64,000 nt of DNA. Source: a virus (Duplodnaviria; Caudoviricetes). A model generated the notes under the pieces. It ran no database searches. It was not told the DNA's origin and saw nothing but the letters and a program-made list of their open reading frames with translations. Below are positions 53,554 to 60,055 of this stretch, in pieces. The stretch lies in the IMG/VR virus record IMGVR_UViG_3300022660_000043; one strand, 5' to 3'. The stretch's first letter is position 1. Every line of letters begins with the position of its first letter. Made by a program: the position numbers and the translations under genes.

Positions 53554-54692
53554 TAGAATGTGAGTTTAACTTCAGGAATAAGGTTACTGATAGCACCACG
53601 AGAGATAATAATAGATCTCTGGTTGCCACAATTAAACGTAATATGCTCATTCTTACAAGAATCAAGTACAAGCTTTAGGTCAATAAGATTTACACCAAAC
53701 TCATACTCACCTGCAACATAGCTACCATTCTCAATAGTAACAAATTCGGTATTATCAAAGCGGTCACGGATCATCATAGAATCACCACTAATATTTACCT
53801 TGACAGGCATATAAGAAGAAACAGATTTATCTGTTGCAGACTTATTATTCTTAGTAAACATCTGAAGTCTAGAAATAGCACTTGCAAATTCATTTACAGA
53901 GAATACCATTCTATAGTCATAAGACTGTGCAATAAAATTCTTTGTAGCAGTGCAAGGTCCCTGGATCTTCTGAATAAGTACATCATCACAGGTAATAATA
54001 GCTGCAAGATATGTATCATCAGTTTCGAGTACCATCTTTGTCTGTACGCCGCCAGCAATAGGATCAATGCCGAGAGAGAACTTAACATCAGTCTTAAAAA
54101 GCTTGAAGAGCTTTACAATACGATCATTGAGAAGCAGCTTCACAGGCTTTTCAAGAGTAAATGCATTAAGACAAGCACCAGTAGTGAAAGTAAAGCAACC
54201 AGTCTCATCAATAAAATAAAGTCTCTGAAGCTCATTTACTACAGAAGCACCCTTAAGCTTAAGAAGCTCCTTACTATTAACATTAAGAATACTGGTAAGA
54301 ATCTCATTAGAAATTCCCATTTCAACTGTCTTATTACCAATACTGATAACAGGAAGAGTCATCAAAGAGCTATTCTCAAAAATCATAGCCAACTTATAGT
54401 TACTCTTACCAGCAGTTACGGTAATATAGTTAGTCTGCTCGGTAATAGTAAAAGTCTCAGTAGTAATGCCAGAAATAAGATTAAGAAAGAGCGAAGCATC
54501 TACTACTGCATGGAAATTAGTAGGCTCAGAAAGAGGAAACTTAACGGACACATAAAACTCTCTATTTGTCACATTAAGATACAAAGTAGACTCCTTTGTG
54601 ACAAGTTCAAGATTGGCAGCATTATCATCGAGACCGGCTGCAAGCAGAATTTTATTAGCTGTCTCTTGAAAATCTTTAGTTGTAATAATCAT
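53553..54692 (-). CDS. DNA sliding clamp, beta (DnaN-like)
   Basis: 379 aa with a three-domain beta-clamp pattern (VTNREF, VVDASLF.NLI, GVN..DL..VL, LIPEV); next to the polymerase. Confidence 0.75.
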   Translation of the reverse strand: MIITTKDFQETANKILLAAGLDDNAANLELVTKESTLYLNVTNREFYVSVKFPLSEPTNFHAVVDASLFLNLISGITTETFTITEQTNYITVTAGKSNYKLAMIFENSSLMTLPVISIGNKTVEMGISNEILTSILNVNSKELLKLKGASVVNELQRLYFIDETGCFTFTTGACLNAFTLEKPVKLLLNDRIVKLFKLFKTDVKFSLGIDPIAGGVQTKMVLETDDTYLAAIITCDDVLIQKIQGPCTATKNFIAQSYDYRMVFSVNEFASAISRLQMFTKNNKSATDKSVSSYMPVKVNISGDSMMIRDRFDNTEFVTIENGSYVAGEYEFGVNLIDLKLVLDSCKNEHITFNCGNQRSIIISRGAISNLIPEVKLTF

Positions 54693-54710
54693 AGTATTTT
54701 GTCCTTTCTA

Positions 54711-55964
54711 TCATTCAAATAAATTTATATAAGCTGTATCTTCATCTTCTGTTTCTTCAACAGTGTCATCATTTATAATAATCTCTTCAATGTCTTCTAC
54801 AATATGAGCAAAAGCATCAGAATCAATCTCTTCGCCTGTTTCAATAGTAGCTCTAATTGCATCAGGAAACATCTCTGGATGATTTTCAATTACTTTGGCA
54901 AGAGCAGTTTCTTTATCCAATCCTTTTTCTTCTAACTTTTTAAATTCAGATTGAATAGAAACTGAGTACTCACCGATATACCACTGTCTTTCCGCATAAG
55001 GGTCACAGGCCATAGGTACATTAATAAAAGGCTTTGCAGTATCAATCATAACTTGAGGCAACCTTTTCTCTACCTTTTCAGCATAAGCCATAGGGCATTC
55101 AACAAGGACCTCATCGTGAACTGTGATAACAAGATGAGCATCAAGTTCTCTAAGCTCTGGATCATTGTCAACATTAACCATAGCTAACTTAGTAAGAGAC
55201 GCTGCTCCACCTTGGATACGTGCATTCAAACACTGTCTTTCTGCCTGAGCTCTTCTACCTGTATTAGCTGAAATTAAGATACCTTCAGCAAGAGCTTCCT
55301 TTGCAAGCTTTTCATGAGCCGTATTACTCATCTCATCATTTTCTTTATAATTGGGATCTTTTTCTCGCTGAAAACGCTGACTTGCTCTTACATTTTCTCT
55401 TACTCGGCCTTCCCAATAAGCTACTCTTTCTGGAGAAACCGTAGGTCTATCCTCACAACCGAGAAAAGGATTAAAATCAGCTGCACTCGGCTTTTTAATT
55501 ACCTTTACTTCATAAGCAGGCAGGCTAAAGTCAGGAAGGTGTCTTCGTCTTCCAGCCCAGTCCTCTACATAGCCTTTTTCAGAAAGCATGGCTTTTGAAG
55601 CATCTATAAGCTTTTTTACGTCAGGGAACTGCCCAAAGAAATTATCCATGAGCTCTTGGCCTTCCTCTGCTGATTTACCCATTCTGGCACCAGCAGTTTT
55701 TGCACTCATTCCATACAAAATTGCCAAAAGCATAGTTTTTGCTGCAGAACGTCTTTCCTTACCTGCTTTATGTAGGTGAGTCTTTTTGCCGCAAATAATC
55801 TTTTTGCCATCAAGTTCTATCTCTGTACCTTCAGGATAAAACTCTAGATTTTCCCAATACTCATTATTAAACATTGATTGAGCGATAACGGCATAAAGAT
55901 CTTTGCCCTCGAAGTAAGCCTGCATCATCTGAGGCGACTGGCTCATAAAAGCTGTCAATCGAGG
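54711..55964 (-). CDS. Family A DNA polymerase, C-terminal part (from PRL of motif A through motifs B and C)
   Basis: PRLTAF, DLY, RSAAKTMLLAILYG, GRRRHLP, NARIQGGAA and VHDE; no RBS-supported start of its own seen. Confidence 0.9.
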   Translation of the reverse strand, partial: PRLTAFMSQSPQMMQAYFEGKDLYAVIAQSMFNNEYWENLEFYPEGTEIELDGKKIICGKKTHLHKAGKERRSAAKTMLLAILYGMSAKTAGARMGKSAEEGQELMDNFFGQFPDVKKLIDASKAMLSEKGYVEDWAGRRRHLPDFSLPAYEVKVIKKPSAADFNPFLGCEDRPTVSPERVAYWEGRVRENVRASQRFQREKDPNYKENDEMSNTAHEKLAKEALAEGILISANTGRRAQAERQCLNARIQGGAASLTKLAMVNVDNDPELRELDAHLVITVHDEVLVECPMAYAEKVEKRLPQVMIDTAKPFINVPMACDPYAERQWYIGEYSVSIQSEFKKLEEKGLDKETALAKVIENHPEMFPDAIRATIETGEEIDSDAFAHIVEDIEEIIINDDTVEETEDEDTAYINLFE

Positions 55965-55966
55965 AT

Positions 55967-56038
55967 CTATTCCTGAGCACTGAAGTCAGACCCGACTAAC
56001 ATATATCTAGTTCTAGTTCTTAAACATTTAGTACTCAT
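55967..56038 (-). CDS. 23-aa polymerase segment carrying the catalytic Asp of motif A
   Basis: MSTKCLRTRTRYMLVGSDFSAQE then TAG; AGAAAGGATGGTGG RBS; out of frame with the downstream part by 5 nt (TAGAT). Confidence 0.85.
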   Translation of the reverse strand: MSTKCLRTRTRYMLVGSDFSAQE

Positions 56039-56075
56039 AATAATAACCACCATCCTTTCTTCCTTTTCAATAATT

Positions 56076-56942
56076 TTATTTATAAAACCATTGAATATTA
56101 GTAATTTTAATGTTTTTATATTTGTTATTTTCGCAAATGCGTCCAGTAATTTCACCTTTGTGAATAGACATTTTGATCTTTCGCTGATAAGTAGCTTCTG
56201 AATAGTTGTTTCCAAAAGGTTTTTCTGTTTGATACCACCACAGACCAGCATCTAAAATCGACTCAAAGTCAAAGCGCTCTCCTGTATTTAATATACAATA
56301 TACAGGGACTGATCTAGTTGCAAAAATATTAGTTGTATTAATTGTTCTGGTCGATACTTTCTTGTCTTTAGAAACTAAAAGCCAGCCTTCCTCAAGCAGT
56401 TGATTGATTTTTTCAGTATTAGCTCCAGCTGTATAGGTACGTTTACCATCTTTAACAAAACATTTTCTATCTCGCTGTGCTTCTGATATTTTTCTACGAT
56501 ATGCTTCTGATCGCCCATTCTTTTTAAGGGTATTAGACAAAGTTTTAGAAATTTTAGCTTTAACTTCATCTGACTGCATGATTAAATCGTGCTTAGCTTT
56601 TACTACAGTAGAATCCATAGGATTGGCTTTTGTACTACCTTCTAGCATATTATATCCTGAAGTTACAGCATCAAAATAATGGATCCAAAACTTCTCCTTC
56701 TCATCTAACTCTTCTTGTGAATCAGCATAATCAATAGTTTCTACACTAAAATTGTCTTTACCATATTTAACCATAGCAAGATACAGGTGCATATATTTAT
56801 ATGCTGCATTACCATAACGTTTACAGTAATAATCTGCCCTAGTCAAATGCTCTTGAAAACGTTTACTAACCGTTCGACGGGTCTGACCAATATAAAGTTT
56901 TAAATTTACCTTGTTAGTAATTTTATAAACATAACCGTACAT
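56076..56942 (-). CDS. GIY-YIG homing endonuclease with NUMOD3-like repeats
   Basis: GYVYKITN...YIGQT, R..EH, ELDEKE..WI, GYN and RSEAYRRKISEA. Confidence 0.9.
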   Translation of the reverse strand: MYGYVYKITNKVNLKLYIGQTRRTVSKRFQEHLTRADYYCKRYGNAAYKYMHLYLAMVKYGKDNFSVETIDYADSQEELDEKEKFWIHYFDAVTSGYNMLEGSTKANPMDSTVVKAKHDLIMQSDEVKAKISKTLSNTLKKNGRSEAYRRKISEAQRDRKCFVKDGKRTYTAGANTEKINQLLEEGWLLVSKDKKVSTRTINTTNIFATRSVPVYCILNTGERFDFESILDAGLWWYQTEKPFGNNYSEATYQRKIKMSIHKGEITGRICENNKYKNIKITNIQWFYK

Positions 56943-56975
56943 AAAAGTCTCCTAAATTAAGTTTTATTTTACACT

Positions 56976-56984
56976 TAATTTAGC
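56976..56984 (-). promoter_or_regulatory. Putative late promoter GCTAAATTA for the endonuclease
   Basis: Exact motif copy about 35 nt upstream of the GIY-YIG start. Confidence 0.65.
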
Positions 56985-56997
56985 ATATAAATTGTCA

Positions 56998-57168
56998 TCA
57001 AATGTCATCGTTTTTCACTGTTTTGCCAAGTAAGGCATAAACAGAATCTGCATTATATCGATGCTGACCGTTAACAGTTATATCAATTTTGATTAACCCT
57101 GACTTAACATATCGTGCTAGAGTTCTACGACAAATACCTAGGGTTTTCATAACTTCTTTTGCTCTCAT
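56998..57168 (-). CDS. MerR-type/IS607-like HTH protein, 56 aa, not in ORF track
   Basis: MRAKEVMKTLGICRRTLARYVKSGLIKIDITVNGQHRYNADSVYALL; AGGAGA RBS. Confidence 0.75.
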   Translation of the reverse strand: MRAKEVMKTLGICRRTLARYVKSGLIKIDITVNGQHRYNADSVYALLGKTVKNDDI

Positions 57169-57177
57169 AAAGTCTCC

Positions 57178-58983
57178 TTAAAACCTAATTCTATAGATTT
57201 TATCTATTTTCTGGATTTCCTGGATATGCCAAGTCCCCGTGCCAGATTCATCTTTTAAGTTGATTTCATCACCAACTTCAAGTTCTGCTATGAATTTCCA
57301 CATTAACTTGCCCTCAGGACTAAGAACTTCAACTTCATCAGTTTCAGGAATTTCAAACCAATTATCAACTGACTCAATTTCATGTTGTTTAGTGTCGCCT
57401 TGGAACAACATTCTAATTTCCTTATTATGAGAAGGGATATTCTGAATGTTAATGCCAGAAACTACGACAGGCTCATCGTTCTCGAAGAACTTAAGCTTGC
57501 CACCTGAGGAATAACGACCAGTGTCGGTACCAAGAGCATTAAGATGAAAACGAATACGACCATCAGGCCAATGCTTTACAAGACTCGGAATGACGTCAAT
57601 ATAAGTAGTAATAAGTTTTACAATACCTCGACGCTTCAAAATAAGCTCACAAATCTTAAGATCTGGGTGCTCTTCAAAAATTGCCTCAAGCTCATCTTCT
57701 CCAGTGCCTCTTGGTGCTTTCTTACTAACTGACTTACAGCCTAAAATATCATAAAATAGAATTGCAAGCTGGGCAGGAGATGCAAGATTAATAGGATCAC
57801 TTAACATATCACAGAGTCTCTTACCAAGCTTATATCTCTTGCCTGCATTAGGATTCTTTTTCTTAGAAGGCTGTCCATCTTTACCGGGCAGATAATCAGG
57901 TTCGATAAGAGTATAAGTACGTTCAAGCTCATCCTGAGATTTCTTAGACTTTTTAGGCATATAGATATGAGCAACCTGTCCACCTTTTTCTGGGTCAAGA
58001 CGCCACTTCATGATTTTATCTCTAAGACCTTCAAGTTCAGCTGCAATTTCTACATCAATCTCGTCAAGAAGCTGCTTATACTTAAGCTTAAGCTTCTTAC
58101 CAAACTTAGTATTAATACTAACACCACGAAGCTCCATCTCAGCAGTTACTATAACAATAGGCATCTCAATATTAAGGAATACCCAATAAACTCTTGTCAT
58201 ATCTTCAGCAGTCATAAGAGGCAGCTGATATTCATAGAGCTTATAAGTCATCATAGAGTCAGTAGCTGCATACAGAGCAAAGATCTCTGGTTCTACAAGA
58301 GCATACTGAATGTTCTCAAACAAACTCTCAATATCATACTTAGCCTGAGAAGGATCAATTTTTGTTGTGTACTGAGCCTTCAAACCAGCAAGCTCATTCT
58401 CATCGAGAAGACGCGCTGCTACCTGAGTATCCCAGTGTGGGGGCAATTCAATACCACAAGTAGTTTTAATAACCTCGTAGTCGAATTTGCCATTATGCAT
58501 GATAATAAATACGTTATTATCTTTAAGTCTTTGGAATTGCTGTCTACAATCCTCTTCCGTAAGCTGATTAGGTAACAGCTCTCTTGTAATAGGATCTACA
58601 TGATTAATAGGAATATAAGCTTGTTTTTCACCAGGAACATACAAACAGGGACCCATTAACTTACAAGTTACAGGATCCAAGCTGTTATTGGTCTCGGTGT
58701 CAACTGCAATAATACCTTTAGCAATAGCCTTATCAATATAGGCAGAGAAGTCATCAAGAGTTCGGATAACAACAGTATTTTGAATCTGCTTTCCGAGAAT
58801 CTTGATGACTTTATCTCTAATAACACCAAGGCGCTCCTGGATAGACAGTTTTTTAGACTTAAGGATTTTTTCAGTGTCTGCACCAACTGCTGCAGATTTA
58901 GGAGTAGATTTCTTTACAAGTTCCTTTGTGTCTTTCTTAGGAATCTCAATATTGAATTCTTCACCGAAAAGATTTCCATCCAT
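57178..58983 (-). CDS. Family A DNA polymerase, N-terminal part (3'-5' exonuclease + thumb) with Hint-like C-terminal extension
   Basis: VDTET, HNGKFD and YAATD exonuclease motifs; TDTGRYSS and NIQNIP; stops before motif A. Confidence 0.9.
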   Translation of the reverse strand: MDGNLFGEEFNIEIPKKDTKELVKKSTPKSAAVGADTEKILKSKKLSIQERLGVIRDKVIKILGKQIQNTVVIRTLDDFSAYIDKAIAKGIIAVDTETNNSLDPVTCKLMGPCLYVPGEKQAYIPINHVDPITRELLPNQLTEEDCRQQFQRLKDNNVFIIMHNGKFDYEVIKTTCGIELPPHWDTQVAARLLDENELAGLKAQYTTKIDPSQAKYDIESLFENIQYALVEPEIFALYAATDSMMTYKLYEYQLPLMTAEDMTRVYWVFLNIEMPIVIVTAEMELRGVSINTKFGKKLKLKYKQLLDEIDVEIAAELEGLRDKIMKWRLDPEKGGQVAHIYMPKKSKKSQDELERTYTLIEPDYLPGKDGQPSKKKNPNAGKRYKLGKRLCDMLSDPINLASPAQLAILFYDILGCKSVSKKAPRGTGEDELEAIFEEHPDLKICELILKRRGIVKLITTYIDVIPSLVKHWPDGRIRFHLNALGTDTGRYSSGGKLKFFENDEPVVVSGINIQNIPSHNKEIRMLFQGDTKQHEIESVDNWFEIPETDEVEVLSPEGKLMWKFIAELEVGDEINLKDESGTGTWHIQEIQKIDKIYRIRF

Positions 58984-59005
58984 GAGTATACCTCTTTAAT
59001 TTTAA

Positions 59006-60055
59006 TTAAGGAGCAATCTTAAATGCACCGGGATTAAAAGTTCTAGGAGCACGGTCAAATCCATTAGGCTGACCTTCTGCCTGCGCAGGAGCCGGAGCGG
59101 TAGGAATTGCAAAACCAGGCATAGCAGGTGCCTGGGGTGCAGTAGGAGCTGCAGGTGCTACAGGTGCTACAGGAGCTGCAGGCACCTCAGCAGGAGTAGT
59201 GGTAATACCAGGTACAAAAGTAGGTGCTACAGGCTGAGGTGCAGGCTGTACAGGAGGCTGATAAGCAGGAGTTACAGGTGCCTGATAAGCAGGAGCTACG
59301 GGAGTAGCAGGTGCGTAGCTTTCAGTTGCTACAGGAGGCTGATATACAGGCTTAGTATAAGCAGGAGCATCGGCATCAGTAGGCATAGGAGCCTGAGGGG
59401 CTCTTGCCACTTCAGGGAAAGAACCAGTGTTGAGGAACACATTAATATCCCCAGGAGTCTTCTCCCAATAACTGTGCTTAGCAATATTAAAGTTATTAAA
59501 AGCACTAAGGTCTTCAGTTACACTCTCAGGCTTATCATACAGAGGAATATAGGAAATGCTATATGTAGTCTGCATGCTATTAGCTACGCCGTTACGAGTA
59601 ACCTTAAATACACGAGTCTTAAGATCACCATAATCATTGAGAAGGTTTGCAATTTCACGAGAGAAACCAGCAGGACGTTCCCAAATTACGGGAATAGCTG
59701 CAGCAAACTGACCAGTAGTAGCATCCTTATAAGATACCATCATCTGAACATAGACCTTCTTTGTTGCCTTACCAATATCCTTGGCACCACCAGCAACTGC
59801 TGCACAAAGAGGGCAGGTATCCTGATAAGAGCCCACTGGATTAAGGCAACTTACCTTCATCCAACGCTGAGCTGCACCGAGCTGATGGACGGTAGCAAAC
59901 TGAAGATCGTTCAGAGAGCTAATATTAAAACGGACAAGGGCTTCATCTTTATCATTCTTCATCTTGAAGAAGCCGACTTTTACTGAATTGCCTTCGGAGC
60001 CACTCTGTGCTCTTGCAATTACTTCCTGATACTGCGAATAGTTGAAATTACTCAT
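59006..60055 (-). CDS. Single-stranded DNA-binding protein (gp32-like) with Pro/Ala-rich tail
   Basis: FFKMKNDKDEALVRF, H...C...CPLC Zn site and FKVTRNG...TTY. Confidence 0.75.
   Translation of the reverse strand: MSNFNYSQYQEVIARAQSGSEGNSVKVGFFKMKNDKDEALVRFNISSLNDLQFATVHQLGAAQRWMKVSCLNPVGSYQDTCPLCAAVAGGAKDIGKATKKVYVQMMVSYKDATTGQFAAAIPVIWERPAGFSREIANLLNDYGDLKTRVFKVTRNGVANSMQTTYSISYIPLYDKPESVTEDLSAFNNFNIAKHSYWEKTPGDINVFLNTGSFPEVARAPQAPMPTDADAPAYTKPVYQPPVATESYAPATPVAPAYQAPVTPAYQPPVQPAPQPVAPTFVPGITTTPAEVPAAPVAPVAPAAPTAPQAPAMPGFAIPTAPAPAQAEGQPNGFDRAPRTFNPGAFKIAP

Follow-up and report, generated by a model that had tools for sequence, protein, structure and literature searches.

A five-nucleotide gap in the catalytic motif of a phage DNA polymerase gene: a probable ribosome hop carried by a homing-endonuclease cassette

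The family A DNA polymerase (Pol A) gene of a large uncultured gut phage is interrupted within catalytic motif A by five nucleotides that begin with a stop codon. Comparison with related phages makes it quite probable that this gap is crossed by a short programmed ribosome hop (stop-hop) and that it is carried by a homing-endonuclease cassette. The locus lies in a 64,000-nt stretch of DNA (hereafter the window) from a 221-kb virus record that is 95% complete and uses the standard genetic code. Relatives stem from gut-type metagenomes, e.g. a water-deer caecum MAG, and the form of the Shine-Dalgarno (SD) sites suggests a host among the Bacillota. The nearest Pol A of cultured phages (Dp-1, phiCTP1) is less than 41% identical, and there is therefore no laboratory model with this locus.

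The split polymerase gene and its gap

The polymerase is encoded on the minus strand in two halves, and the C-terminal half is divided once more by the gap:

57178..58983, minus strand: N-terminal half of the split family A DNA polymerase (601 aa; 3'-5' exonuclease, thumb and first palm strands; Pfam PF01612, and PF00476 positions 17-158)
55970..56038, minus strand: first segment of the C-half, 23 codons, with the catalytic Asp (55987-55985, Klenow D705) and Glu (E710), from sequence and Klenow alignment
55970..55972, minus strand: putative take-off codon GAA (Glu), its role suggested by the allele series
55965..55969, minus strand: 5-nt coding gap TAGAT with the stop at 55969-55967 and the presumed near-cognate landing triplet GAT at 55967-55965, from sequence and allele comparison
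54711..55964, minus strand: resume frame, 417 codons, Pro-Arg-Leu through motifs B and C (Pfam PF00476, E 4e-44)

Direct reading of the minus strand gives GAA (55972-55970), TAG (55969-55967), AT (55966-55965) and then CCT CGA TTG. The initial annotation had proposed that excision of 55965-55969 repairs motif A, and the letters bear this out: the 23-codon ORF starting with ATG at 56038 is joined to the 417-codon frame and D-F-S-A-Q-E-P-R-L is restored. The restored motif aligns without gaps to Klenow D705...E710-L711-R712 by way of P0001, a gap-less relative that is 99% identical and served as alignment bridge, and motif A spacing in the joined product equals that of Klenow. The hop product would be 440 aa long. 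Profile search found no other family A polymerase gene in the record. Both the split polymerase and the GIY-YIG endonuclease gene, likewise claimed from the bare sequence, proved real by Pfam.

The same truncated C-half is encoded by seven JGI contigs of 0.2-1 Mb, and TAGAT is present in the one that was read (L078), which is 99.9% identical overall. The identical pentamer also occurs in the divergent phage L009, where downstream identity is 51-87%. Because a second assembly and a divergent phage share the pentamer, an assembly slip is unlikely and the insert is confirmed as real at the level of assembled sequence; with 16 further structured gap alleles in existence, the chance that an assembly or sequencing error created it is negligible.

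Several conventional explanations for an interrupted gene were rejected. A TAG-recoded phage is at odds with 79% coding under table 11 (ORFs of at least 100 aa) and with the lack of a tRNA with CUA anticodon, i.e. an amber suppressor, among the 31 tRNAs at default score; for the window allele recoding of TAG fails in any case, since readthrough would leave the frame unrestored. The 31 tRNA genes (G000 C1:196353-221095) include two tRNA-Ile(TAT) and both tRNA-Glu species; phage tRNAs might conceivably assist a near-cognate landing. No release factor gene was found in the genome. A group I intron had no Rfam match in 54500-59200, nor was there an RF00028 match genome-wide. A split intein in a fractured gene was discarded since there was no Hint Pfam match, and the N-terminal Cys/Ser and C-terminal His-Asn are missing at the junctions. 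The split itself passes through a beta-rich insert domain of ~75 aa (window 57181-57391 and 56038-56003) that is whole in continuous relatives; this domain loosely resembles an intein Hint half, but the splicing residues are absent and there is no Pfam match.

Allelic variation of the gap in related phages

Homologue searches yielded about 45 distinct loci. The polymerase is continuous in six of them, all with an intact motif; the remaining loci have the split immediately ahead of motif A, and a gap is found in 22 of them. Together the 22 loci hold 17 gap alleles that are 4, 5, 6, 7, 8, 9 or 12 nt long and follow Ser, Ala, Glu, Pro or Arg, i.e. five codon positions within a single nine-codon motif. 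All three frame classes are covered, and only hopping would lead from these 17 alleles to one common product. The first triplet of the gap is a stop codon in 15 of the 17 alleles, and the other two open with CGG and TCG, the rarest sense codons of the phage genome studied here (0.8 and 2.2 per 1000).

In 13 of 17 alleles, take-off codon and landing triplet agree at the first two bases (the nominal p of 1e-11 is overstated, since the alleles are not independent), while the third base is mostly different. Examples are Ser TCT-stop-TCT (L034), Arg CGA-stop-CGT (L026) and Glu GAA to GAG across 4, 8 and 9 nt (L033, L028 and L050, respectively). The pairing of the window, where the landing GAU is an Asp codon near-cognate to the take-off GAA (Glu), is found again at 8 nt in L044 and L074. 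Matches are poorer in four alleles (TCC>GCT twice, CCG>TCG and GAG>GGG). The differing third base points to re-pairing of a tRNA and against DNA or RNA repeats, although matched gap ends could stem from short duplications. The poorly matched TCC take-off with GCT landing recurs in two alleles of 5 and 9 nt (L001, L008, L047).

No sense insertion into motif A was found among 99 proteins. There are four apparent exceptions. In P0023 and P0101 the supposed insertion was verified to come from a gene call that took TAG for Gln, and P0135 and P0242 look to be of the same kind. Codon pairs with synonymous changes outnumber those with non-synonymous changes on either side of the gap (362:120 and 326:46), and by this measure both segments are shown to be under purifying selection, which extends to the codons directly after Ser-gaps, where no start codon precedes. 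The proposal that the insert is skipped in translation is thus well supported by comparison, through 17 alleles with a stop or hungry codon first, matched landings and a single predicted product.

Two peculiarities of locus organization were noted. In one clade (L031, L065, L104-L109) the C-half gene lies away from the N-half, behind a formate/nitrite transporter gene; the gap (4 nt, rare codon CGG) is present in some members and absent from others. In L033 (1285-1586), ~300 nt interrupt the N-half just after its NIP motif, possibly an intron or a remnant.

Translation initiation upstream of the gap

The 23-codon ORF is preceded by an unusually strong ribosome binding site:

56045..56060, minus strand: extended Shine-Dalgarno site, 15 bp with one bulge against the Bacillota-type 16S 3' end (duplex -20.1 kcal/mol)

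The initial annotation had called this site strong, which understated it: its duplex is stronger than those at the starts of all 210 long ORFs in the genome. An extended SD precedes the short ORF in 22 of 22 gapped polymerase loci, where 11-15 bp can pair with the 3' end of the 16S rRNA. The duplexes have a median of -19.4 kcal/mol in gapped loci (weakest -15.6) against -6.8 in 13 intact split loci (p 1e-6), a contrast that also holds with an E. coli-type anti-SD. Among 15 intact loci a strong SD is clear in one, L103, whose motif is intact with codons that match those of L025; this locus is probably a recombinant. Because of L103, the extended SD can be said to accompany the gap nearly always but to need none.

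Among Bacillota, extended pairing of the SD is in itself ordinary (PMC13009471); the strength seen here is exceptional for this genome. As for its role, we lean towards the view that it offsets a low hop yield by overdriving initiation. That it instead supplies a trailing ribosome which blocks back-slippage is conceivable, though rather unlikely.

An exchangeable endonuclease cassette

The exchangeable segment includes the following elements:

56076..56942, minus strand: free-standing GIY-YIG endonuclease (288 aa, NUMOD3) with the catalytic Y/R/E/N pattern (Pfam PF01541, E 6e-8)
56976..56985, minus strand: TGCTAAATTA, probable phage late-promoter element before the nuclease (repeat count; function putative)
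56998..57168, minus strand: MerR/HTH_17-type helix-turn-helix ORF, 56 aa, inside the cassette (Pfam)
57181..57391, minus strand: C-terminal tail of the N-half, a beta-rich insert domain of some 70 aa that forms the left part of the cassette (identity to L025 ends at 57392)

A comparison of the window with L025 gave 94% identity up to 57392 and 95-100% from about 55950, and the sequences differ in between, where L025 lacks both nuclease and gap and its SD is weaker. Conversely, L009 matches the window at 89-95% over the nuclease end, the SD, the short ORF and the gap, and at 51-87% beyond. The gap thus lies inside a mobile cassette, since the identity breaks with L025 and L009 flank it. These alignments show 57391-55956 to move as a unit, as expected from the T4-like cassette architecture that had been suggested for this locus, with the right edge placed near 55956, 7-9 nt past the gap. 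They further show that the cassette (N-half tail, helix-turn-helix ORF, GIY-YIG gene, extended SD, new start and a recoded motif A with the gap) has taken the place of the original junction in a Pol A gene that was split beforehand. An equivalent beta-rich insert is carried by the continuous homologues L003, L006 and L007.

The element TGCTAAATTA occurs five times in the window (8361, 13618, 23480, 27047 and 56976; 0.7 expected), always on the minus, coding strand, and its core precedes four other GIY-YIG genes of the genome; the repeats probably represent a late-promoter element. The 56-aa MerR/HTH_17 ORF resembles the N-terminus of an IS607-type resolvase and is absent from the other gapped loci that were read.

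A link between nuclease and gap had been predicted, and the relatives bear it out in part. Where a nuclease gene lies at the split, 10 of 10 loci are gapped (L008, a fragment, was assigned by similarity to the window nuclease), compared with 12 of 27 loci without one (Fisher p 0.002). On the other hand, an intact nuclease at the split is lacking from 12 of the 22 gapped loci, and after correction for the tree the association amounts to about 4 to 0 pairs (p 0.125, not significant). Gapped and intact states interleave in the C-half tree with 13 changes (a rapidly built ML tree in which several rows, namely L036, L044, L059, L060, L067 and L076, are long or partial), and three near-identical C-halves bear three different gaps. 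The nucleases found at the split belong to different families (GIY-YIG, LAGLIDADG and weak PD-(D/E)xK matches). Of the six GIY-YIG genes in this genome, four stand without a gap next to them; a GIY-YIG gene that follows the topoisomerase-like gene of this phage has none alongside. Decayed GIY-YIG genes (internal stops or a remnant) were seen in L076 and L042, which have kept gap and strong SD.

Regarding the origin of the insert, it seems rather likely, by analogy, that it exists because it breaks the nuclease target within the most conserved codons, where silent changes would be insufficient. The gap would then persist once the nuclease is lost or swapped.

Gaps in other genes and motifs

The genome was scanned for a strong SD followed by a short ORF and a long alternative frame. 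Besides the polymerase site, this brought up a HAD_SAK_2 gene at C1:182530; the scan candidates at C1:5511, 22697 and 73648 were rejected as lying inside long ORFs. The HAD_SAK_2 gene sits outside the window, directly behind another GIY-YIG gene (G000 C1:181665-183077; L079:1166-2578), and contains a second TAGAT gap. This gap comes after the second of the motif I Asp residues, take-off and landing triplets are identical (GAT/GAT), and an extended SD is present. Its counterpart P0222 is an intact protein, 98% identical. Relatives of the HAD gene comprise intact genes as well as 5- and 7-nt gaps, and protein starts suggest gaps of 4 and 6 nt too. The SD strength is -15 to -16 kcal/mol in gapped HAD genes and -5 to -13 kcal/mol in intact ones.

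A blind search with the SD pattern gave seven matches, four of them internal to ORFs. The three real starts were one known gap, one ordinary 74-aa gene and a locus in L110 (4762-6569, minus strand), where a NUMOD4-HNH gene, an extended SD and a 28-codon ORF are followed by a gapped SNF2 helicase gene. Its gap is 4 nt long, stop-initiated and located in motif I, with take-off at Asp GAC and landing at GAA; the resume codon is ATG, and re-initiation is a possible alternative at this site. Moreover, the polymerase of L044 is split a second time; there, an SD of the same type goes with a gap of 8 nt in motif B, from Leu to Leu. Such a second split upstream of motif B, with another beta-rich tail, was seen in L044, L036 and L059 and in the proteins P0039 and P0128; P0039 has an apparent 12-nt gap at motif B, and L059 a GIY-YIG gene at its second polymerase split.

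These cases invite a wider reading, which we put forward tentatively and hold to be less probable than not. Large gut phages of Bacillota might share a portable module in which an extended SD is followed, 11-28 codons on, by a stop-initiated gap of 4-12 nt. In this way, and with no need for introns or inteins, homing endonucleases of any family might invade catalytic motifs in several enzymes (Pol A motifs A and B, HAD, SNF2). The SD at the start site might itself stimulate the hop, e.g. through a trailing ribosome, a signal undescribed for bypassing.

How the gap may be crossed

For the window allele, the hop would begin with heavy ribosome loading at the very strong start, and 23 codons would be translated. 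Ribosomes would then pause with UAG in the A site, where most would terminate. In a fraction of them, the peptidyl-tRNA-Glu might leave GAA, slide 5 nt and re-pair at GAU in the unmonitored P site with two Watson-Crick pairs. Translation would resume at CCU and deliver the C-half with an intact motif A.

Two signals invoked in the initial annotation are unsupported for this allele. The hairpin AGGA-AUAGA-UCCU over the stop has 4 bp and folds no better than shuffled sequences (z +0.71; p 0.54-0.58), and the basic nascent peptide contains RTRY, which is also present in continuous and gap-less polymerases. Longer alleles do pair with their 5' flank above random gaps (combined p 4e-4), so the window allele, whose hairpin finds no support, may be a trimmed version.

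A -1 frameshift at the stop reaches the same frame and had been named as an alternative. The peptidyl-tRNA-Glu would slip from GAA to GGA, with an extra Ile-Asp tolerated in motif A. Slow stops favour slips, and on paper the pairing with GGA, which forms three pairs (one G-U) with the Glu anticodon, is as good as or better than that of a GAU landing; CAG precedes GAA in every Glu-take-off allele with GAA. As an explanation for the whole family it fails. Three mechanisms (-1, +1 and readthrough) would be required, inserting 1-4 different residues at five places of a catalytic strand-helix, while none of the 99 proteins has such a sense insertion and the spacing matches Klenow. At the TAGAT site of the HAD gene a -1 slip would set tRNA-Asp on UGA, which makes the pairing impossible there, and the matched landing triplets would be left unexplained. 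There is a slim chance that the -1 shift accounts for the gap, and at similarly long odds the slip to GGA is a credible side route for the window allele.

It is less probable still that the five bases are removed from the RNA, either as a micro-intron or by cutting and re-ligation through phage repair enzymes, or are skipped by RNA polymerase. The genome does hold two matches to the RNA/ATP-ligase family besides the HAD_SAK_2 gene, and the small hairpins into which several longer alleles fold have the stop in the loop. Against RNA removal stand the lack of a group I intron or other Rfam match and of RtcB in the genome, and insert ends without a shared splice consensus. Moreover, each gap begins precisely between two codons, its first triplet is a stop or rare codon, and the variation falls on the wobble base, a pattern that follows the logic of translation.

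Equally improbable is that no recoding takes place, with the gene either a pseudogene or in an off-state while the host polymerase is used, or with the 23-aa peptide and a re-initiated chain acting as separate subunits. A TTG two codons beyond the gap could serve such a re-initiation, and products of split genes can reassemble (T4 gp39/gp60, Aeh1 NrdA). Yet this is the sole Pol A of the genome, selection is purifying on both sides, initiation at TTG would drop the conserved Pro-Arg, and gaps recur across many lineages with a co-selected SD. Hence the stop-hop is retained as the preferred reading.

Comparison with other bypass systems and implications

The mode of the proposed hop resembles that of T4 gene 60 with a shared cassette logic, and differs in host gene, gap length and RNA signals. 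As in the gene 60/MobA system (Manning and Atkins, bioRxiv 10.1101/2022.08.31.505936), a free-standing nuclease lies between the split halves of an essential gene, with a new tail and a new N-terminal segment, and the gap sits at an invariant catalytic motif near the right edge of the cassette. Likewise, a stop (TAG here) or hungry codon directly follows take-off, the gap is retained after loss of the nuclease, and nuclease families are interchangeable. The T4 insert is reported to disrupt the nuclease target (Bonocora 2011, as cited in bioRxiv 10.1101/2022.08.31.505936). In contrast, the host gene there encodes the large topoisomerase subunit and here Pol A, also HAD and SNF2; polymerase is never mentioned in Manning and Atkins (bioRxiv 10.1101/2022.08.31.505936). 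T4-type gaps span 20-50 nt at two take-off positions compared with 4-12 nt at five positions, and they rely on a UUCG take-off stem-loop and a mini-SD 5-7 nt before landing, neither of which is found here, where an extended SD occurs instead at the start codon, 11-28 codons upstream. A 5-nt gap leaves no room for a mini-SD at T4 spacing. Take-off/landing pairs of T4 type are all wobble-matched, whereas GAA/GAT of the window is near-cognate only and the HAD site exact. Sequence homology between the two elements is not apparent.

Nearest in size are the 10-nt bypass in the terminase of Streptomyces phage Hau3 and synthetic stop-hops. Hau3 (Antonov 2023, PMC10732093) shares the very short gap, the essential gene and a Gram-positive host; mass spectrometry in E. 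coli confirmed bypassing with a stop in the A site, and an SD and a stem-loop were proposed as 5' signals (PMC10732093). It differs in using the regulated rare codon UUA inside a long gene with no nuclease described, compared with a stop near the gene start in a mobile cassette. In the synthetic E. coli stop-hops (Weiss 1987, as summarized in the review of Atkins 2016, PMC5009743), matched codons around a stop turn 9 nt into one residue, the geometry seen in L034 (Ser) and L026 (Arg). Those were engineered, while the gaps described here are natural, selected and placed at catalytic motifs; according to Atkins 2016 (PMC5009743) no natural in-frame stop-hop was then known. The byps of Magnusiomyces capitatus mitochondria are similar in that many inserts of mobile origin are skipped with tolerant landing, and unlike in their length (27-55 nt), GC-rich hairpins, unassigned codons and organelle ribosomes. 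Outside subscription papers, we found no description in the literature of polymerase bypassing or of short phage coding gaps.

Natural programmed bypassing has been documented in only three settings, i.e. T4-type topoisomerase elements, the Hau3 terminase and yeast mitochondria. With a natural series of 17 gaps and a gap-less sister gene of 99% identity, the minimal requirements for hopping become open to direct testing, namely gap length, landing match, stop versus hungry codon and initiation strength. Besides introns and inteins, such hops might offer homing nucleases a third route into active-site codons. There are also practical consequences for annotation, as gene callers either cut such polymerases short, so that the catalytic Asp is lost, or take the stop for Gln. 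The extended SD can serve as a search key for further cases. The strongest SD match genome-wide (-22 kcal/mol) is intergenic (G000 C1:144769-144790, minus strand; L081) and precedes ORFs of 26 and 31 codons, possibly a small-protein gene or a regulatory RNA.
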